Sequence record: PX441839.1
Reading direction: 5' to 3' (one strand)
Origin: a phage
Length of the DNA stretch: 64,000 nt
Shown: piece after piece, positions 1,859 through 63,960 of the stretch
Layout of the letters: each line of letters begins with the position of its first letter
Position numbering within the stretch: position 1 is the first letter of the stretch
The notes under the pieces: model-generated
The model's database searches: none
Told to the model about the DNA's origin: nothing
What the model saw: the letters and a program-made list of their open reading frames with translations, nothing else
Made by a program: the position numbers and the translations under genes

Positions 1859-3346
1859 ATGGCTTCCAATTACGGCTTGACAAGCAGCGGATTCAACCTC
1901 CCGGCTCTTGATGACCTGACGGAGGAAACCAAGAAGGCTTTCCGCCAGGCTTTCGGAGAAAACTTCAATACCGGAAGTAACTCAGTTGCTGACAAGCTGA
2001 TCTACATTCTCAACGAGAGAGAATATCAACTTTATCTTTTAATGGCCTCTGTTTATTCTGCTCAAACAATGCAGGGTGCCGAGGGAATCTATCTTGACGA
2101 TTTGCTGGGTAAAAGAGGTATTTACCGCTTAGGCAAAACAAGAAGTACCGGGACAGCAGTTCTTACTGTTGACGCTTCCGTTCCCTACAATATGATCTAT
2201 AACGCTTCCAGTTACAGCATTGACGGTGGAAACTACGAACTGGCAACTGATGTTCAAGTAGCAGGGAACATCATAGCACAGGTGATCAGAGGAACTGATC
2301 TGGTTGTTGGTAATTATAGATTAACAATTCAAAACGTCAATGATCAATCTCAAAGGACAGTGACCCACAACCTCACCGCAACGAGCGGTGCCCCTCTGAC
2401 AGTTTTCTTTAACGTCATAAAAGATTTCATTGTCACAAACACCATTTTGTCCAACCAAGACCGAATTGTCATTGATTCGGTAGAGGGTGCCATCTACATT
2501 GGATACAACACCAGCAAGGAGATGATTGGACTTTCAAGCCGTGTTGATTTCAGAACATCACCGCTGGCAGGGAATAAGACAATCCTTATTGATGTAAGAT
2601 CGGTAGAGCCAGGTGCAATATCACGAGAGGCACACAGTATTAGGTCGATCTCTCCAACCCCTAGTGGTTTTGTTGCTATAGATAACCTGAGTGCATTTAC
2701 CGATGGTTCAGACGTAGAGTCAGATAACGAGTACAAGCTTCGTGGGGCCATGTCCGTTAACTCAGGGAAGGCAACCCGACCTGCTATCCTCTCTGCCCTT
2801 TTGAACGGAGTGGAAGGGATAGAGAAGGTTCGCATATTCAACAACAATACGGATAAGACTAACGCACTAGGTATCCCACCTTATCGCTTTCAGGTTGTTG
2901 TTTATGGTGGCACAACAGAACAGATCAGTCAAGTCCTTTATGATACGATAGCGGCATCTAATAATACCTTTGGTACAACTTTCCACGACATCACTACAGA
3001 GGATGACCAGGTGGAAAGAATATGGCACACAAAGGCATCAGAAAGAAGGTTAGCTATTCGAGTACGCTACAGAGGACGACCGTTGTCTATGACTGAGGAG
3101 ACAGCCATTGCAAACGGGTTGGTCACGATAGTTAACGGATCTAATATCGCAGACACGATCTACAACGTTCAGTTGGTAGGTACAGTAATGAGTTCCACAA
3201 CACCGGGTAGATTCACCCAAGTGTTTGTAGATATTAAGAATAAAGGGGCACCTGATTCGGAATTTGTAAACTCTGACATAACAGCAGGTGTTACCGAGGT
3301 ATTCAACCTTGAACCGGAAGATGTCCAGTTCAGCCAAGTTGTGTAA
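1859..3346 (+). CDS. Baseplate J-like protein
   Basis: 495 aa ORF in the baseplate J position; SD GGAGGAG upstream of the ATG. Confidence 0.45.
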   Translation: MASNYGLTSSGFNLPALDDLTEETKKAFRQAFGENFNTGSNSVADKLIYILNEREYQLYLLMASVYSAQTMQGAEGIYLDDLLGKRGIYRLGKTRSTGTAVLTVDASVPYNMIYNASSYSIDGGNYELATDVQVAGNIIAQVIRGTDLVVGNYRLTIQNVNDQSQRTVTHNLTATSGAPLTVFFNVIKDFIVTNTILSNQDRIVIDSVEGAIYIGYNTSKEMIGLSSRVDFRTSPLAGNKTILIDVRSVEPGAISREAHSIRSISPTPSGFVAIDNLSAFTDGSDVESDNEYKLRGAMSVNSGKATRPAILSALLNGVEGIEKVRIFNNNTDKTNALGIPPYRFQVVVYGGTTEQISQVLYDTIAASNNTFGTTFHDITTEDDQVERIWHTKASERRLAIRVRYRGRPLSMTEETAIANGLVTIVNGSNIADTIYNVQLVGTVMSSTTPGRFTQVFVDIKNKGAPDSEFVNSDITAGVTEVFNLEPEDVQFSQVV

Positions 3347-3354
3347 GGTGAATT

Positions 3355-4005
3355 ATGGCAGAAGAAGTAGATAACGTCACGGTGAAAGACGTTAACCACA
3401 TCCACCCTCTGCCCAATTTCGTCCAAGAGGGTATAGATTACATACCCTCTAATCTTTTCGAAGGAAAAGAAAACTTCCTTAAAACATTGACCATCTTTCT
3501 TGAAAGGCTGGAGAGCATAGATAAGAAGATGGTTGAGATGGCAGAAATGAGGACGATCCTCAATGCCGAAGGGGAGAACCTGGATGAGATAGGCAGACAA
3601 CTGGGGATCTTTAGAAACGGCCTCAACGACCCTGAGTACAGGGCAGTTATCATGATTCTTACAGGTAACAACTCTAAGAGTGGGACCAGAGCCGATATTA
3701 TTGCAACTTTGAAGCAACTATTCGGTGATGAGGGCGTTACAACATACAAGGGTCATAATTACAGGCTGGATATAAATATATTCAACACCTGTATGGAAGT
3801 CACTGACATACTTCCGCAAATATTGGATATGTTGCCCCTTGTCACCCACCTCCGAGTTGTAGAAAACAACGGATATCCTTTTGGGTTTGAGGGCGACAAC
3901 CAATCTTTTGGTTGGTCGTCAGTTTGGGATGAAAGGCCAACAGGCGCGGGTGGAATGGCATCACTGATCTATGTGTCCGATGATGAAGACCCTTTCTTTT
4001 CTTGA
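3355..4005 (+). CDS. Tail protein I-like baseplate component
   Basis: 216 aa ORF immediately after the J-like gene and before the tail fibre gene. Confidence 0.4.
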   Translation: MAEEVDNVTVKDVNHIHPLPNFVQEGIDYIPSNLFEGKENFLKTLTIFLERLESIDKKMVEMAEMRTILNAEGENLDEIGRQLGIFRNGLNDPEYRAVIMILTGNNSKSGTRADIIATLKQLFGDEGVTTYKGHNYRLDINIFNTCMEVTDILPQILDMLPLVTHLRVVENNGYPFGFEGDNQSFGWSSVWDERPTGAGGMASLIYVSDDEDPFFS

Positions 4006-6067: not shown

Positions 6068-6406
6068 ATGATTCTTGATATAATGGCAGTTCTTAAAGCA
6101 CTCTGGGGATTTGCCACTTTTATTTTGTTGGGGATTCTCAAAATTACGTATTCTGACTTCAAAAAGATGCAGGAACGTCAGGACACTCTTGAGAAAGATA
6201 TTATCCGACTCAGGAGTGAGATGGTTACTAAGGACAGTCTTGATGATATTTTTGATCGGAAGATGAAACATATTCAAGACACTATCCAGGATATACGTGG
6301 GGATCTCGCAGACATGCGAGGAGAAACAAAGGACGAGGTTACTGCCTTACGTAATGAAATCAGGACTGTTTTGAATGTAGTTTTGGAGAGAAGCAACAGA
6401 CAATGA
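6068..6406 (+). CDS. Membrane-anchored coiled-coil protein (function unknown)
   Basis: N-terminal hydrophobic segment ALWGFATFILLGILKI followed by charged heptad-like sequence. Confidence 0.4.
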   Translation: MILDIMAVLKALWGFATFILLGILKITYSDFKKMQERQDTLEKDIIRLRSEMVTKDSLDDIFDRKMKHIQDTIQDIRGDLADMRGETKDEVTALRNEIRTVLNVVLERSNRQ

Positions 6407-6864
6407 TATCTTCCCTGTTCTACGGGATGTGCTTCCTGATTGTCCTTATGAACCCTTGCGTTCGTACAAAAATAATGGCGGGGCTATGCCTCGCCTATAT
6501 TGTAATAGAGAATATGATGCTTTGGTACACAATAACCAATGTTATCCATTTCGATATTACCCTTTATCATACCCTCGGGTGGATATTGGATTCAACTCTT
6601 TTGTTTGCAGTGGGTTGTGTTTTAAGAGGAAAGAGGCAGATCCTCATCATAGCTTCCGCAATACCCCTTATGGTGTCTCAAGTGTTAGCAATCCAATATC
6701 CTTCTATGTTCCCACCTGATGTATACCAGTGGGTAATTAAAGATGCTCACATGTATTTTATTGAGATGTTTATCTTCGCTCATTCTTGGAAAGACAACAC
6801 AGTAAAAGAGTGGTTAAAGACAGGAACAGTGTTGGGCCTTGTTGTTGCTGCACATTTAGTTTGA
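6403..6864 (+). CDS. Multi-pass membrane protein (function unknown)
   Basis: 153 aa with about four hydrophobic segments; start overlaps the upstream stop. Confidence 0.4.
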   Translation: MISSLFYGMCFLIVLMNPCVRTKIMAGLCLAYIVIENMMLWYTITNVIHFDITLYHTLGWILDSTLLFAVGCVLRGKRQILIIASAIPLMVSQVLAIQYPSMFPPDVYQWVIKDAHMYFIEMFIFAHSWKDNTVKEWLKTGTVLGLVVAAHLV

Positions 6865-6883
6865 TTGATATTACAGGTGGTAT

Positions 6884-7156
6884 ATGTTAAAATTCCTAAA
6901 GGACTTGATCCGGTCCACAACCGACCCTGCCAAGGCTTCACATACAAAGCTTTGGTCGAATATCGGTATGGCTTCAATGACTGCGGTGTTTCTCTGGTAT
7001 GGTTTCAAAGGAACCCTCCCTGAGTGGTATTTGTGGGTTTATGCCCCTTCCGTTGCTGCACCACAGTTATTTAGCAAACTGATCGCCCTTCGTTGGGGAA
7101 TAAACCCCAACCAGAAGAATACAGAAGATGAATTAAAAGGAGATCCTCGTGGCTGA
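6884..7156 (+). CDS. Small membrane protein (function unknown)
   Basis: 90 aa with two hydrophobic segments; stop overlaps the start of the long fibre gene. Confidence 0.35.
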   Translation: MLKFLKDLIRSTTDPAKASHTKLWSNIGMASMTAVFLWYGFKGTLPEWYLWVYAPSVAAPQLFSKLIALRWGINPNQKNTEDELKGDPRG

Positions 7157-60735: not shown

Positions 60736-61539
60736 GTGACAACACCAAAAGGACCAGATATTTTACCAATACACGCATATGGGGTGGAGGAGTACAACCC
60801 AAGCCATAGTGATACCCGACCAGAGTTACCTGACCTACCATCATTCTGTGATAAGGTTAGTGAAGCAATGAATGAGATCTCCGATGGAAATCCAGATGAA
60901 GCCATTAGGATACTGGCAGACTTACGATCAGACATGTCTTATTTTAGCATGGCACCAATCGTAGAGCATATGGATCAGAGCGAAGATGTTATTGCCAAAT
61001 TTGCCCTGACCTACCATGAAATAAGACAAAGCCTCCTCGGAGTTGCCACCTATGAGGAAAATGCCCAGGCCCTTATGGATGTGCTGGAAGATATCGATGA
61101 GAGCATTACCGATGTTGAGCCTTCTACTGTGTGGGGAGACAAAATAAAGGAGTACGTGGGGTACGGAGTCAAGGGGTTCTTCGACAGCTTCCCCTACCTT
61201 TCTAAAAGGACTTTTTATTACAACCCTTATCTTAAGGCGTACATGGCAAAGGTTAATCTCCCTGATTCCCAAACCATATGGATTAAGGTTATGGGCGGTG
61301 GTGTTGTAATGAATACCGACAGTGGGACTATGACAATAACTGGCAGAGAGGTTATGTTCTCATCAATAAGCAGAGAATCAGTTAAGTACACGGATAAGCA
61401 ATTGAAAGAGATGTTTGAAACATCCATGTGGGATGCCAGCGAAGACGAACTTATGATGTTTAAGATGGTTTACCCTGAACACCACAGTGATATTTTAGAT
61501 TTACTGAGGGCTTGGCGCGGAAAAGAAAATACGAATTGA
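60736..61539 (+). CDS. Hypothetical acidic protein (267 aa)
   Basis: GTG start with AGGAG SD. Confidence 0.4.
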   Translation: MTTPKGPDILPIHAYGVEEYNPSHSDTRPELPDLPSFCDKVSEAMNEISDGNPDEAIRILADLRSDMSYFSMAPIVEHMDQSEDVIAKFALTYHEIRQSLLGVATYEENAQALMDVLEDIDESITDVEPSTVWGDKIKEYVGYGVKGFFDSFPYLSKRTFYYNPYLKAYMAKVNLPDSQTIWIKVMGGGVVMNTDSGTMTITGREVMFSSISRESVKYTDKQLKEMFETSMWDASEDELMMFKMVYPEHHSDILDLLRAWRGKENTN

Positions 61540-61627
61540 GATATTTTTGCAGGATATTTGGATTGATATTTGGGTTCAATTCTCAGATTGAAATTCGATT
61601 TGAGATTTTATTTTAGATTTTTACATA

Positions 61628-61647
61628 TGGGCTTCGGCCCCCTTTTT
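61628..61647 (+). terminator. Short hairpin terminator
   Basis: GGGC-TTCG-GCCC followed by CCTTTTT. Confidence 0.4.
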
Positions 61648-61788
61648 CACATTTGTTGAACAACTTGGAGGTCATACGGAACGATTGGTAGGCGTCAGTG
61701 ATAATTAAGTACAACATTTCACACATTAAGTGCAGAATATTGGCATAACTCACAATATATCACACATAACTTCGTTAACGTATGTTCA

Positions 61789-61975
61789 AAAATTTTGGAA
61801 CTCGATCACTTTTTTAAAATCCAAATCGTATTCGTCAGTGAGGGAATGAGTTGGGTACAGAGGTAAAATTTTGAGAACCGGAGCACTTTTTTAAATCTGA
61901 GATCGTATTCAAAATCCAGATACAGAGTGAAAAATTTGAGAACTAGAGAGCTTTTTTAAAATCCAAATCGTATTC
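61789..61975. repeat. Three imperfect ~47-bp direct repeats (iteron-like)
   Basis: Units near 61789-61834, 61863-61910, 61929-61975, each ending CTTTTTTAAAATCCAAATCGTATTC or a close variant, spaced about 66-74 bp. Confidence 0.6.
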
Positions 61976-62305
61976 TTTTCTAAGTTGTTAAGCACAATTT
62001 TATAGTGGAGTCAATGTGTTTTTAAAATCTTCACAAAAGGTTTAGATGGGAGTGATTATCGTTTAGAAAGGTAAATAAGAATCATTATCATTTGCAGGAT
62101 AGCGGGCACCCCCGGTGTTTTGTACTCCGGTTTCAATGTTCCCGCTATGTGTATAATATACCCTGGACCGTTACCGCTTGCAAGTGTCTTTACATTTATT
62201 TACAAAACTATTTAAGACGAACTACCGGCGATCAACCTTCGGTGCGCCTCCGCTACCTTAGCCCCGCCTTTACGCCGTGGGGTGGCGTTCCTAACCTTTG
62301 AAAAT

Positions 62306-62334
62306 AGTATAGCCAGGCTTGCGCCCGGCGTCAA
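62306..62334 (-). promoter_or_regulatory. Sigma70-like promoter firing leftward into the non-coding/repeat region
   Basis: On the minus strand: TTGACG, 17-nt spacer, TATACT; no ORF downstream. Confidence 0.45.
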
Positions 62335-62337
62335 TAG

Positions 62338-62646
62338 TTATTTTTCCAATTCCCTTAAATAATCCACCACGCCAAACCAATAAGAGATTAACAACGGTTT
62401 AAGTTTAAATTGTTCCTTCCGTGCCAGATAAACAACCTTTACACATTTTTCGTCGGCGTCGATCCTACCCTGGCGGCGCGGGCTGTTGTAAGTTACATCT
62501 TGTATTTTGTGAAGATCTAAGATCTCGCTTACGGTTAAACCTGTTTCCCTTGCCACCTGGTGAACGGTTCCACCTTGCCAACCTAAAGCAGCCATCAATA
62601 GTTCGGTATTGGTTTTCATGTTCCTGTTTCCTTTGTTTGCTTTCAT
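62338..62646 (-). CDS. Small putative DNA-binding regulator (possibly leaderless)
   Basis: MKANKGNRNMKTNTELLMAALGWQGGTVHQVARETGLTVSEI... with HTH-like stretch; ATG lies about 7 nt after the -10 box (alternative start at 62619 with SD). Confidence 0.35.
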   Translation of the reverse strand: MKANKGNRNMKTNTELLMAALGWQGGTVHQVARETGLTVSEILDLHKIQDVTYNSPRRQGRIDADEKCVKVVYLARKEQFKLKPLLISYWFGVVDYLRELEK

Positions 62647-62653
62647 TGCGTAC

Positions 62654-62682
62654 ATAATACCCCCATATAAAAAGGATTGCAA
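62654..62682 (-). promoter_or_regulatory. Sigma70-like promoter (divergent partner)
   Basis: On the minus strand: TTGCAA, 17-nt spacer, TATTAT. Confidence 0.45.
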
Positions 62683-62706
62683 GTAAAAATATTTTATATT
62701 TAGGTA

Positions 62707-62735
62707 TTGACTTGTAAAGGTCAATGATTGATAAT
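62707..62735 (+). promoter_or_regulatory. Sigma70-like promoter with overlapping inverted repeat
   Basis: TTGACT, 17-nt spacer, GATAAT; TTGAC-n8-GTCAA inverted repeat overlaps the -35. Confidence 0.45.
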
Positions 62736-62767
62736 GGCACCACGTTAACAAAACAGGTGATAAAGAT

Positions 62768-63094
62768 ATGCTACAAACTAAATATTATATTGAAGGTATC
62801 CAGGCGGCGCATAACGGCGCGGGGCGTTTCTGCCGTTATCGTAAACCTGAGAACGTAGAACAATGGCAAGCTGGTTATGATAGTGTTGAACGATCCCACA
62901 TGGTGATCCGATTCAACAGCAAGCCAATGGGTAAGCCGCTTACAGCGTACCAGGAGCGCCCCGATCCTGTCTATATGGGGACGCTAAGACAGTGCCAGGA
63001 TCGCGCCGTGTCTTTATCCCTTGCTGACCGTTCGGCATTTTTTGAAGTGTACACAAAAGACGGCGATTTGTACCGATACGAAAGCAAGATCTGA
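62768..63094 (+). CDS. Hypothetical protein with Rmf-like N-terminal motif
   Basis: GIQAAHNGAGRFCRYRKPENVEQWQAGY loosely resembles the ribosome modulation factor core (GYQAG...CPY...QW..GW); weak. Confidence 0.3.
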   Translation: MLQTKYYIEGIQAAHNGAGRFCRYRKPENVEQWQAGYDSVERSHMVIRFNSKPMGKPLTAYQERPDPVYMGTLRQCQDRAVSLSLADRSAFFEVYTKDGDLYRYESKI

Positions 63095-63110
63095 TTTTAT
63101 TTAAAAGCTA

Positions 63111-63139
63111 TTGACAAGCGCCGCTATCGTCACCATAAT
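63111..63139 (+). promoter_or_regulatory. Sigma70 consensus-like promoter
   Basis: TTGACA, 17-nt spacer, CATAAT; AAGGAG SD and ATG follow. Confidence 0.55.
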
Positions 63140-63168
63140 ACAGACTCAAAAGCAAAGGAGGCCGTAAG

Positions 63169-63408
63169 ATGTTAACCAAAAATCAATTAGTTTCTGCCGT
63201 TAAGGGTACGAATGGCATTAGCCTTGATCAAGTTTACAAGGAGTGTCGGCGATACGGGAAGATCCGACACCTGGAGGATGTAGACCAGTCCGGCACGTTG
63301 GTAACATATGCCTACATTGAATACAAGTATCTTTCTTGGGAGTTCGAACTTGTAAAAGGTGAAGTTTTATCCGTTTCATGGAACAAAGAAAATAACTGGT
63401 CATTCTAA
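63169..63408 (+). CDS. Hypothetical protein
   Basis: 79 aa ORF with AAGGAGG SD. Confidence 0.4.
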   Translation: MLTKNQLVSAVKGTNGISLDQVYKECRRYGKIRHLEDVDQSGTLVTYAYIEYKYLSWEFELVKGEVLSVSWNKENNWSF

Positions 63409-63426
63409 AAATAATTGTTGACGTAT

Positions 63427-63454
63427 CGTTATGACCGTTTATAATAGCGGTCAT
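63427..63454 (+). promoter_or_regulatory. Sigma70 consensus-like promoter with operator-like inverted repeat
   Basis: TTGACG, 16-nt spacer, TATAAT; inverted repeat ATGACCG...CGGTCAT brackets the -10. Confidence 0.55.
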
Positions 63455-63491
63455 AGAGAAACGAAACACAATCCAAACAAAGGAAATAAAA

Positions 63492-63866
63492 ATGAAAAAA
63501 TCTATCATTGCCATTATCGCCGCAGTATCTTTTAATGCCAGTGCTTACACTGTAAACCTGAATGATCTTTCAAGTTGGGAAAACAACATGCGTGATCGCT
63601 TTTCGGTCCCGAATCAAATCAAGAAAAGTCAGGAAGTCTACTGTATCGCAGATCTGACTAATGAGATCACTGGTGAAATCACAAAGGGCAATAGCTTTAA
63701 TCTTTCCGGCCCTTACGAAATGCAGGGCGGGGATCGTGTCTACACTGAGCAGGACGAAACAGGATCAACCGTTGTTTATGTTAACCCTAAAACGGGGCGC
63801 GGTTCCATTTCCATGATGGACAATAGCCAGGTTATTGCAAGCGGAAATATTAAGTGTAAATTTTAA
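63492..63866 (+). CDS. Secreted protein (signal peptide)
   Basis: MKKSIIAIIAAVSFNASA signal-peptide-like N-terminus; Cys near the C-terminus. Confidence 0.45.
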   Translation: MKKSIIAIIAAVSFNASAYTVNLNDLSSWENNMRDRFSVPNQIKKSQEVYCIADLTNEITGEITKGNSFNLSGPYEMQGGDRVYTEQDETGSTVVYVNPKTGRGSISMMDNSQVIASGNIKCKF

Positions 63867-63875
63867 AAATAGTTG

Positions 63876-63904
63876 TTGACACCGATTAGAGAAAGTAATA
63901 TTAT
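63876..63904 (+). promoter_or_regulatory. Sigma70 consensus-like promoter
   Basis: TTGACA, 17-nt spacer, TATTAT; 5' UTR hairpin GGGG-AGTTGTT-CCCC then SD. Confidence 0.5.
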
Positions 63905-63960
63905 TTATCACATAGGGCGGGGAGTTGTTCCCCACCTAAAAACAAAGAGAGTAAATAAAA

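Follow-up and report, generated by a model that had tools for sequence, protein, structure and literature searches.

A pseudoknotted non-coding RNA family and a candidate replication origin in a conserved gene-free region of rV5-like phages

We analyzed a gene-free region of 0.8 kb at 61.5-62.3 kb in a stretch of 64,000 nucleotides (nt) of phage DNA (sequence record PX441839.1; the whole 64-kb stretch is called the window). The window belongs to a Vequintavirinae (rV5-like) myovirus, whose closest relative is Salmonella phage SSBI34 (89% identity over 61400-62800). The gene-free region is a real and conserved composite module that is only partly explained. Our main new result is that it harbors, on its minus strand, a previously uncatalogued family of pseudoknotted non-coding RNA (ncRNA), here called RNA1. 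RNA1 is headed by a first promoter (P1); beyond it, in the same leftward direction, lie a second promoter (P2), the start of a second putative transcript (RNA2), a set of palindromes and AT-rich repeats (coordinates in Table 1). An original prediction, made from the sequence, had considered the region a candidate replication origin or regulatory hub. On balance, we lean towards a composite reading in which an ncRNA gene that would act in trans stands next to an origin module that would act in cis.

RNA1 and its promoter

When searched at the DNA level, the whole region aligned with SSBI34 only, and its right 265 bp (62080-62345) were conserved far more widely. This segment was found in 232 phage records of Vequintavirinae and Stephanstirmvirinae without conservation of its flanks, and its best-kept core spans 105 bp (62187-62292). 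Across 185,579 reference bacterial genomes, the invariant core pattern was found in a single contig, a 4-kb fragment of a metagenome-assembled genome, and it was also present in 14 metagenome contigs that are phage-like in appearance. On this evidence, the element is restricted to phages. RNA1 itself was recovered from more than 240 phage genomes in three lineages, Aeromonas phages included.

RNA1 combines an H-type pseudoknot with a hairpin (H3) that carries a bulged A. The first helix of the pseudoknot (S1) is CGCC/GGCG and the second (S2) pairs the loop CCCC with a downstream GGGG; the linker reads AAAAGGC or CUAAAC and is followed by a conserved CUA. Along the molecule, about 30 nearly invariant nucleotides precede a lineage-variable hairpin, which is followed by an invariant 3' tail of 18 nt (AAGGUNRAUCGCCGGNAG). 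Alignments of 33-44 distinct homologues revealed at least six sequence versions of the hairpin stem across lineages, with pairing maintained. Scanning the IMG/VR database with the tail pattern yielded divergent members of the family, and therefore the invariant part of RNA1 could be tested for pairing as well. In S2, CCCC:GGGG is replaced by CCAA:UUGG, CCAG:CUGG or CCAU:AUGG. Aeromonas phages present an S1 changed from CGCC/GGCG to GGAC/GUCU, with pairs going from CG to AU and from CG to GU.

When 14 sequences were aligned with plain MAFFT, all three RNA1 helices taken together were 91% paired (25-39% in slid controls) with double-sided changes at nine of the 15 pairs, and none of 500 shuffles reached the observed values. 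The H-type pseudoknot was 87.5% paired, relative to 25-54% in slid controls. We then searched with a covariance model (R1) built without the pseudoknot pairs. In the window it matched only once (62222-62302, minus strand; 81.3 bits; E ~1e-24), and elsewhere it retrieved 48 distinct homologues. On the alignment of these 48 sequences, one S2 pair alternates between CG and AU (CG:35/AU:9) and a second pair is also variable (AU:5/CG:1/GC:1/UA:1), while H3 presents covariation at all five of its pairs. The G-U pairs of RNA1 form in the minus sense only. The structural signal comes from covariation and not from folding energy, because single-sequence folding of a 231-nt segment was no more stable than that of shuffled sequences on either strand. 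A long-range helix GGCGG/UCGCC, predicted by both minimum free energy folding and RNAalifold, was not kept in the variants, and the pairings CCACC/GGUGG and CGGCGA/UCGCCG also failed in RNA1 variants; these three were discarded. The covariation makes it highly probable that RNA1 is a real structured ncRNA read from the minus strand.

The near-consensus minus-strand promoter recognized by the original prediction was found again as P1. All 44 distinct homologues present a promoter at this position, with a -35 box TTGAC(A/G), TTGCAA or TTGCTT, a spacer of 17-18 nt, a TATAMT-like -10 box and a distance of 17-21 nt to S1. In the window, the GC-rich P1 spacer (62312-62329) forms the hairpin GCCGGGC-GCAA-GCCUGGC. 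The equivalent hairpins of relatives bear GNRA loops and their G-U pairs form in the minus sense only, which suggests that the spacer doubles as the terminator of the small gene upstream. P1 had been described as transcribing into the AT-rich tract with no open reading frame (ORF) to express. The absence of an ORF was correct: relatives differ by indels of 2, 6 and 8 nt, so the short ORFs found there are not conserved in frame. The promoter is not without a product, however, since it heads the gene of a structured ncRNA.

RNA1 is found as a gene of its own outside the rV5-like phages. We identified homologues in 11 records of Aeromonas Plateaulakevirus phages (2L372X, 2L372D, 4L372XY, 4L372D and others), where RNA1 occupies a 310-nt gap between two genes of the opposite strand. 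There it is preceded by a sigma-70 promoter (TTGCTT-17-TATAAT) and followed by an intrinsic terminator about 45-60 nt past the tail, with no AT-rich repeats after the gene. In two of the Aeromonas members, loop 3 of the pseudoknot contains 47 nt of inserted sequence comprising three hairpins, a pattern that is typical of real structured RNAs.

A further rearrangement was observed in a Klebsiella Mydovirus-like contig (L015, IMGVR_UViG_2974574029_000001; 6302-7128). An ORF encoding an HNH endonuclease of 197 amino acids (aa; phrog_953, E=8e-79) is inserted exactly within the invariant RNA1 tail, and it is followed by a new promoter and by a second, divergent 5' part of RNA1 fused to the native tail. 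RNA1 and P2 are thereby about 650 bp apart and both are retained. This arrangement looks like a homing event that preserved one intact RNA1. The targeting of RNA1 by a homing endonuclease suggests that its tail is functionally constrained. An HNH endonuclease is listed under the match in record OY757067 as well.

Rfam 15 searched at E<=1 gave no match on RNA1 or RNA2, either in positions 61000-63200 of the window or at four divergent loci. Folds similar to the hepatitis delta virus ribozyme, pistol and preQ1 were rejected on inspection, as the required P1 and P2 strands of these folds are absent, in line with the negative Rfam result. The tail resembles a Shine-Dalgarno sequence but no start codon follows AAGGUG and the N position is variable. 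The compact hairpin of RNA1, with its loop pairing downstream across an A-rich linker, is reminiscent of the preQ1-I aptamer and of ToxI-type RNAs. Unlike these, RNA1 has no Rfam match, is not tandemly repeated, and carries an additional bulged hairpin and the 18-nt invariant tail; unlike the preQ1-I riboswitch, it has no downstream ORF or expression platform. The pseudo-ToxI of phage phiTE is the only characterized ncRNA of this phage group (PMC3475682). Like RNA1, it is an intergenic ncRNA encoded by a Vequintavirinae phage, but it consists of a tandem 36-nt repeat without sequence similarity to RNA1 and lies at 106.7 kb in phiTE, where the module described here lies at 39.6 kb. We found no ToxI-like sequence, with its tandem repeats of about 36 nt, in the window or at the phiTE locus, and the escape locus of phiTE is located at another place in that genome.

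The second module: P2, palindromes and AT-rich repeats

In the Aeromonas phage 2L372X, a second module lies in a 560-bp non-coding region located 2 kb from RNA1. Its first element is a promoter (TTGCAC-17-TATACT), which is followed by a structured, G-rich transcript that can be aligned with RNA2 in its 3' part. Next come Fur-like palindromes, two to three in number and repeated every 28 bp, and finally AT-rich DNA carrying GGTCTC-type repeats. Alignment confirmed its homology to the module of the window. Because 2L372X separates them, P2-RNA2-palindromes-repeats forms one ancient module and P1-RNA1 another, and in rV5-like phages these two separable modules merely lie side by side.

The position of P2 is conserved in all lineages, with -35 boxes TTGCAA, TTGATC or TTGACC and -10 boxes TATATT, TATTAT or GATAAT. 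The conserved A/T-rich tandem motif UUUUGUAAAnAAAUGUAAAGA upstream of it is probably a P2 upstream element or another binding site. At about +1 of the P2 transcript stands CACAU(A/G)GCG, and the 5' hexamer of RNA2 pairs with CG(C/U)(C/U)AU about 45 nt downstream. This outer stem was 93% paired, relative to 25-59% in slid controls. One of its pairs alternates between GC and AU (GC:10/AU:8), and two others alternate between G-C and G-U, which would be A-C mismatches on the opposite strand. The folding z score of the domain is -2.0. Together, the conserved promoter and stem suggest with good, though not full, confidence that P2 and RNA2 are real. In one IMG/VR contig (IMGVR_UViG_3300026472_000003, ~2975-3470), about 450 nt of inserted sequence, which include an apparent ORF, interrupt RNA2. 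Behind the insert stand a new promoter (TTGACA...GATAAT) and RNA2 once more, as a second copy; the pattern is like that of the HNH insertion in RNA1.

Two palindromes are located beyond RNA2 in the window. The proximal one, TAAGAATCATTATCA (62076-62090), is good and the distal one, TGGGAGTGATTATCG (62047-62061), is degenerate. Relatives carry one to four copies of TGA(G/T)AATnATT(C/A)TCA with a strict 29-bp period and at a fixed distance from the RNA2 start; counted from the P2 start, the palindromes are found some 60-150 nt downstream. We considered that they might form RNA hairpins, but their half-sites vary independently, giving U-C and A-C clashes. Such independent variation is in keeping with sites for a dimeric DNA-binding protein and does not fit an RNA hairpin, and we predict with confidence that the palindromes are protein-binding DNA. 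The original prediction did not see this array and proposed the three long direct repeats as iterons; the palindromes, with their 29-bp period, are better candidates than the long repeats.

Further leftward, the DNA becomes very AT-rich. The GC-content is 28-37% over 61700-62100, relative to about 44% for the window, and the 400 bp starting at 61701 are the most AT-rich stretch of the entire 64 kb, which bears out the AT-rich tract noted earlier. The three long direct repeats lie within it, with units separated by an A/T tract. They had been described as repeats of about 47 bp spaced by about 70 bp: there are indeed three copies and they are conserved, but each is 55 nt long and the spacings are 77 and then 65 bp. 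Their core, CTCGAnnG-TTTTTYAAAATC-N3-ATCGTAWTT, is conserved, and a degenerate 24-nt form of it has three matches in the window, all at this locus (0.00 expected from shuffles). The three-copy architecture is also present in SSBI34, K45 (Mydovirus), GEC_vB_MG (Seunavirus), CR3 and Hena1, where the first spacing measures 74-78 bp and the second 63-69 bp, and in relative L065 with spacings of 71 and 74 bp. It is kept in at least six genera, and the repeat sequence drifts among relatives except for the core CTCGAnnG-TTTTTCAAAATC...ATCGTAWTT and an A6T6 tract. Stephanstirmvirinae present other A/T-rich repeats at the equivalent place.

The left edge of the region was also largely as predicted. The phased ATATTT(G)G motifs are present with a 12-13 bp period and are conserved in relatives. 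The copy at 61540 reads GATATTTTTG, and those at 61553 and 61565 read GATATTTGG, of which the exact sequence occurs three times in 64 kb, two of the three at this site. Equivalent triplets or doublets were found in phiTE, Hena1, L065 and ukendt. Of the left 540 bp, only this motif segment aligns beyond the closest relative (77-79% identity, Certrevirus and others). The hairpin expected past the last rightward gene proved to be two hairpins: an AT-rich 11-bp stem (61581-61605) and GGGC-TTCG-GCCC followed by a T-run (61629-61647), the latter reading as the intrinsic terminator of the rightward operon. An Rfam hit to the rimP leader at this place (25.9 bits for a threshold of 47; E=0.2) was rejected, as it reflects the two terminator hairpins only.

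Possible functions of the region

We infer that host RNA polymerase would transcribe the module leftward early in infection. P1 would make RNA1, the product of a putatively independent ncRNA gene. RNA1 would most likely act in trans, its target being some protein or nucleic acid of either the host or the phage. P2 would start RNA2, whose 5' end would fold into a stem-closed domain, and P2 transcription would then cross the palindromes and enter the AT-rich repeats and the terminal GATATTT triplet. The most likely role of this second part is that of a cis-acting phage replication origin, at which a protein array on the palindromes, together with P2 transcription (and P1 read-through), would open or prime the AT-rich repeats. 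This assignment is tentative, and we give it somewhat less than an even chance.

Part of the earlier case for an origin stands: the layout fits, and relatives from six genera or more share it, as do Aeromonas phages. The sequence features of iteron- or lambda-type origins are present, namely a repeat array and, adjacent to it, the lowest-GC DNA of the window. The lambda origin comprises four 19-bp iterons with dyad symmetry bound by the O protein and an adjacent AT-rich region, and it is activated by transcription from pR. Similarly, the module contains one to four palindromic sites of about 19 bp with a fixed period, adjoining the most AT-rich DNA, and promoters reading through. As a putative origin, it differs from that of lambda by lacking an adjoining initiator gene, by its 29-bp period and by the three further repeats of about 65 bp and the GATATTT triplet beyond the palindromes. 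The primary origin of T7 consists of the tandem promoters phi1.1A and phi1.1B followed by an AT-rich stretch, and oriF and oriG of T4 consist of a promoter and a DNA-unwinding element primed by an R-loop. The two tandem promoters of the module likewise face an AT-rich stretch with repeats. Unlike those of T7 and T4, they are host sigma-70 promoters, each followed by a conserved structured RNA, and palindromes precede the AT-rich DNA. The rV5 helicase is reported to combine T7 gp4-like and DnaB domains and to be related to primase/helicases of podoviruses (PMC3606486).

Several observations weigh against the composite reading. The cumulative GC skew of the window does not switch at 61.5-62.3 kb. 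It turns sharply at about 13.2 and 51.9 kb, where gene orientation switches (from + to - and from - to +, respectively), and reaches its minimum at the latter, divergent point. Skew is a weak indicator of origins in phages (PMC3606486). DnaA boxes (TTATNCACA) form no cluster, and two relaxed matches at the locus are not conserved in relatives; the window contains 14 relaxed matches for 8 expected. GATC sites (Dam/SeqA) are enriched in phiTE and K45, and this enrichment is absent from the window and from Stephanstirmvirinae. We found no plasmid origin similar to the region and no initiator gene that could be assigned to the repeats. The 93-aa protein encoded beside the module (see below) is not the obligatory palindrome binder, because many palindrome-bearing phages lack it. 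One lineage of 141-kb IMG/VR contigs (L081, L095 and L076) has kept RNA1 and a diverged RNA2 without any Fur-like palindromes. It carries instead three to four ACTATCAC(G/C)CC(T/C)GAAA repeats, along with a pair of AT-rich repeats that are each about 150 nt long, so that the operator appears to have been swapped inside an otherwise conserved architecture. RNAalifold gave no consensus structure for the RNA2 interior, and the RNA2 structure is therefore moderately supported. Regarding RNA1, no intrinsic terminator follows it in the window or in Vequintavirinae, and it may therefore act there within a longer read-through transcript. Finally, its tail has no antisense target within the window, and its complementarity to the 16S, 23S and 5S rRNAs and tRNAs of E. 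coli is no better than that of shuffled tails. Nor does the tail have a conserved pairing partner within the molecule.

A serious rival, although we consider it rather unlikely, is that the role of the region is purely regulatory and possibly Fur-dependent. This is the hub that the original prediction offered as an alternative, with which the data are equally compatible. Under this hypothesis, the palindromes would be operators for the host Fur or for a phage repressor, and early transcription to the left would be gated by the bound protein, which would form a roadblock past P2 or else repress a weak rightward promoter-like site at 62062-62091 (TTTAGA-18-TATCAT). The ncRNA output would then be tied to iron status or infection stage, and the long repeats would be sites for a nucleoid protein or for bending. 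The Fur box has the sequence GATAATGATAATCATTATC (7-1-7 form: TGATAATnATTATCA), as exemplified by the operator of aerobactin iucA. Of the 19 positions of this consensus, the palindromes match 14-16, and they show double registers with an offset of 6 bp, as is typical of Fur boxes. Within the 64-kb window, the consensus is matched best at position 62071 (15/19), and the relative L005 carries the perfect sequence TGATAATCATTATCA. Moreover, the operator is kept across Enterobacterales and Aeromonas phages, which share Fur specificity and differ in neighboring phage genes, and the promoter-like site overlaps the proximal palindrome. However, position 4 of the half-site (consensus TGAGAAT) is G in 65% of the sites, relative to T in the Fur consensus, and the sites are discrete with a 29-bp period instead of contiguous hexamers. 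They also lie downstream of the P2 start and not over a strong promoter, unrelated repeats stand in their place in the L081 lineage, and our literature search gave no precedent for Fur boxes in lytic phages. The similarity to the Fur box makes Fur a possible binder of the palindromes, but we consider this identification doubtful.

A further alternative, which we regard as unlikely, is that the whole region constitutes one origin, with RNA1 and RNA2 as primer or activator RNAs in the style of ColE1 RNA II or of the R-loop of T4 oriF. The structured P1 and P2 transcripts would then hybridize within the AT-rich repeats and prime the leading strand, which is the original prediction in its strongest form. 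Two tandem conserved promoters do fire into the AT-rich repeats with no terminator between them in Vequintavirinae, the RNAs are structured and G-rich, and the order RNA1-P2-RNA2-palindromes-repeats is independent of genus in about 230 genomes. As for the ColE1 RNA II pre-primer, a structured G-rich transcript is thus located upstream of the putative origin and directed to it. In contrast to RNA II, RNA1 measures only about 80-100 nt, and in Aeromonas phages it forms a separate gene that ends in a terminator, 2 kb from the palindromes and AT-rich DNA; no equivalent of RNA I was found. In addition, the HNH insertion of L015 parts RNA1 from P2 without loss of either, and nothing in the AT-rich region is complementary to the invariant RNA1 tail.

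It is very unlikely that the repeats and palindromes represent a pac recognition region or another virion-related cis site, a packaging role for which we found no specific support. Phages of the phiTE type package by headful from a pac site and their genome is terminally redundant and circularly permuted (PMC3475682). Repeated protein-binding sites in non-coding DNA are typical of pac and cos regions, and one GenBank linear record starts inside the repeats. However, the locus lies among early genes and far from any terminase gene in the window, strong early promoters through a pac site would be unusual, and the record start and an 'attL' label look like artefacts of assembly or annotation. The record in question (PQ002170.1, Salmonella phage vB_Sen_SG_WM_RUS_R7) starts just upstream of the module, with its match at 78-309 and positions 12-91 labelled 'attL'. 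It is filed under Demerecviridae and gives the same match as the Seunavirus GEC_vB_MG here (72.9% identity to the window); its start, label and classification are probably artefacts of assembly or annotation.

The hypothesis that decayed tRNA genes, or else a short gene encoding a protein, account for the conserved 250 bp can practically be dismissed: tRNA-Met and tRNA-Ile are annotated in OY978796, coding sequences are annotated in GEC_vB_MG and SSBI34, and a TTG-start ORF of 69 aa exists on the plus strand (62092-62301), but ARAGORN and Rfam were negative and the indels of relatives are not multiples of three and fall inside the covarying hairpin. ARAGORN detected no tRNA in the window, nor in the loci L001 and L002. 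The L002 record (OY978796.1, Klebsiella phage vB_Kpn_K45PH128C2) annotates tRNA-Met, Ile, Lys, Thr and Ser at the locus. In its 6.2-kb stretch, ARAGORN found neither a tRNA or pseudo-tRNA here nor the other tRNAs annotated by the record, whose tRNA coordinates are apparently shifted.

Phages of the rV5-like, phAPEC8-like and phi92-like groups are among the most often isolated broad-host-range coliphages and are candidates for therapy. To our knowledge, their replication origin is not known. The rV5 genome paper shows an unexplained 'non-coding' box, and its skew analysis found no origin (PMC3606486). Our literature searches retrieved no work on the ncRNAs, origins or Fur boxes of this phage group. 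The analysis provides a new RNA1 family with strong covariation, the defined parts of a conserved candidate origin and a possible link to host Fur and iron. In a bolder version, which we consider improbable, RNA1 would represent a new class of early RNAs of phages that act in trans through the invariant tail and the pseudoknot, for example as decoys or inhibitors of a conserved host factor or a defense system, and the palindromes would recruit Fur, coupling origin firing or early transcription to iron. If true, such Fur coupling would represent a host-sensing circuit not described for lytic phages. Knowledge of the origin and of an early ncRNA would be relevant to engineering these phages and to understanding how they take over their host.

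Flanking genes

The region is bordered on its left by the last ORF of a rightward operon and on its right by a small gene encoding a 93-aa protein (Table 1). The leftward unit is short, and beyond its 93-aa gene a series of early genes runs rightward, divergent from it.

Table 1. Position and strand of the features of the gene-free region and its borders in the window
Feature	Position	Strand	Description
Last ORF of the rightward operon	60736-61539	+	267 aa; left border of the non-coding region
Three direct GATATTTKG motifs	61540-61573	+	12-13 bp period; adjoining the 3' end of the 267-aa ORF
Terminator zone of the rightward operon	61581-61647	+	Two hairpins
Three long direct repeats	61779-61833, 61856-61910, 61921-61975		55 nt each; 65-78% identical
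Two palindromic putative operator sites	62047-62061, 62076-62090		29 bp apart; Fur-box-like
Putative RNA2 5' domain	62099-62151	-	Stem AUAGCGGG/CCCGCUAU closing the conserved loop GAG(U)ACAAAACACC
Putative promoter P2	62183-62155	-	TTGCAA-17-TATATT
A/T-rich tandem motif	62187-62207	-	UUUUGUAAAnAAAUGUAAAGA in the minus sense; between RNA1 and P2; conserved in alignments
RNA1	62222-62302	-	81 nt; leader, H-type pseudoknot, bulged hairpin H3, invariant tail
Promoter P1	62334-62306	-	TTGACG-17-TATACT
93-aa small gene	62338-62619	-	phiTE_079 homologue, phrog_33408; first gene of the leftward early unit

The N-terminus of the 93-aa protein contains 35 invariant residues that are similar to a helix-turn-helix (MKTNTELLMxALGWQGGTVHQVAxETGLTVxEILDL) and its C-terminus is variable. 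Its fold is confidently predicted to be all-helical (AlphaFold2, mean local confidence score pLDDT 93). The protein had no sequence match in Pfam or the PDB and no significant fold match, and its weak fold hits were helix-turn-helix regulators. It is probably a new small DNA-binding protein of the helix-turn-helix type in the early leftward unit. Homologues were found in 151 phage records, with no Aeromonas phage among the named matches, and the genes on either side of RNA1 in Aeromonas phages bear no relation to it. The gene does not stand beside the module in Mydovirus or in Hena1, and it was not recovered from the Hena1 contig; Mydovirus, Hena1 and the Aeromonas phages nevertheless have the palindromes. 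In Escherichia phage ukendt (MN850565), a homologue of the gene is present at ~1700-1925 but unannotated, and tblastn matches indicate that several other Phapecoctavirus records likewise leave it unannotated.

Finally, each of the small early genes on the plus strand at 62700-63910 is preceded by a near-consensus sigma-70 promoter, for example TTGACA-17-CATAAT at 63111, TTGACG-16-TATAAT at 63418 and TTGACA-17-TATTAT at 63876. With 18 found for 8 expected, this segment is enriched in promoter-like sites.

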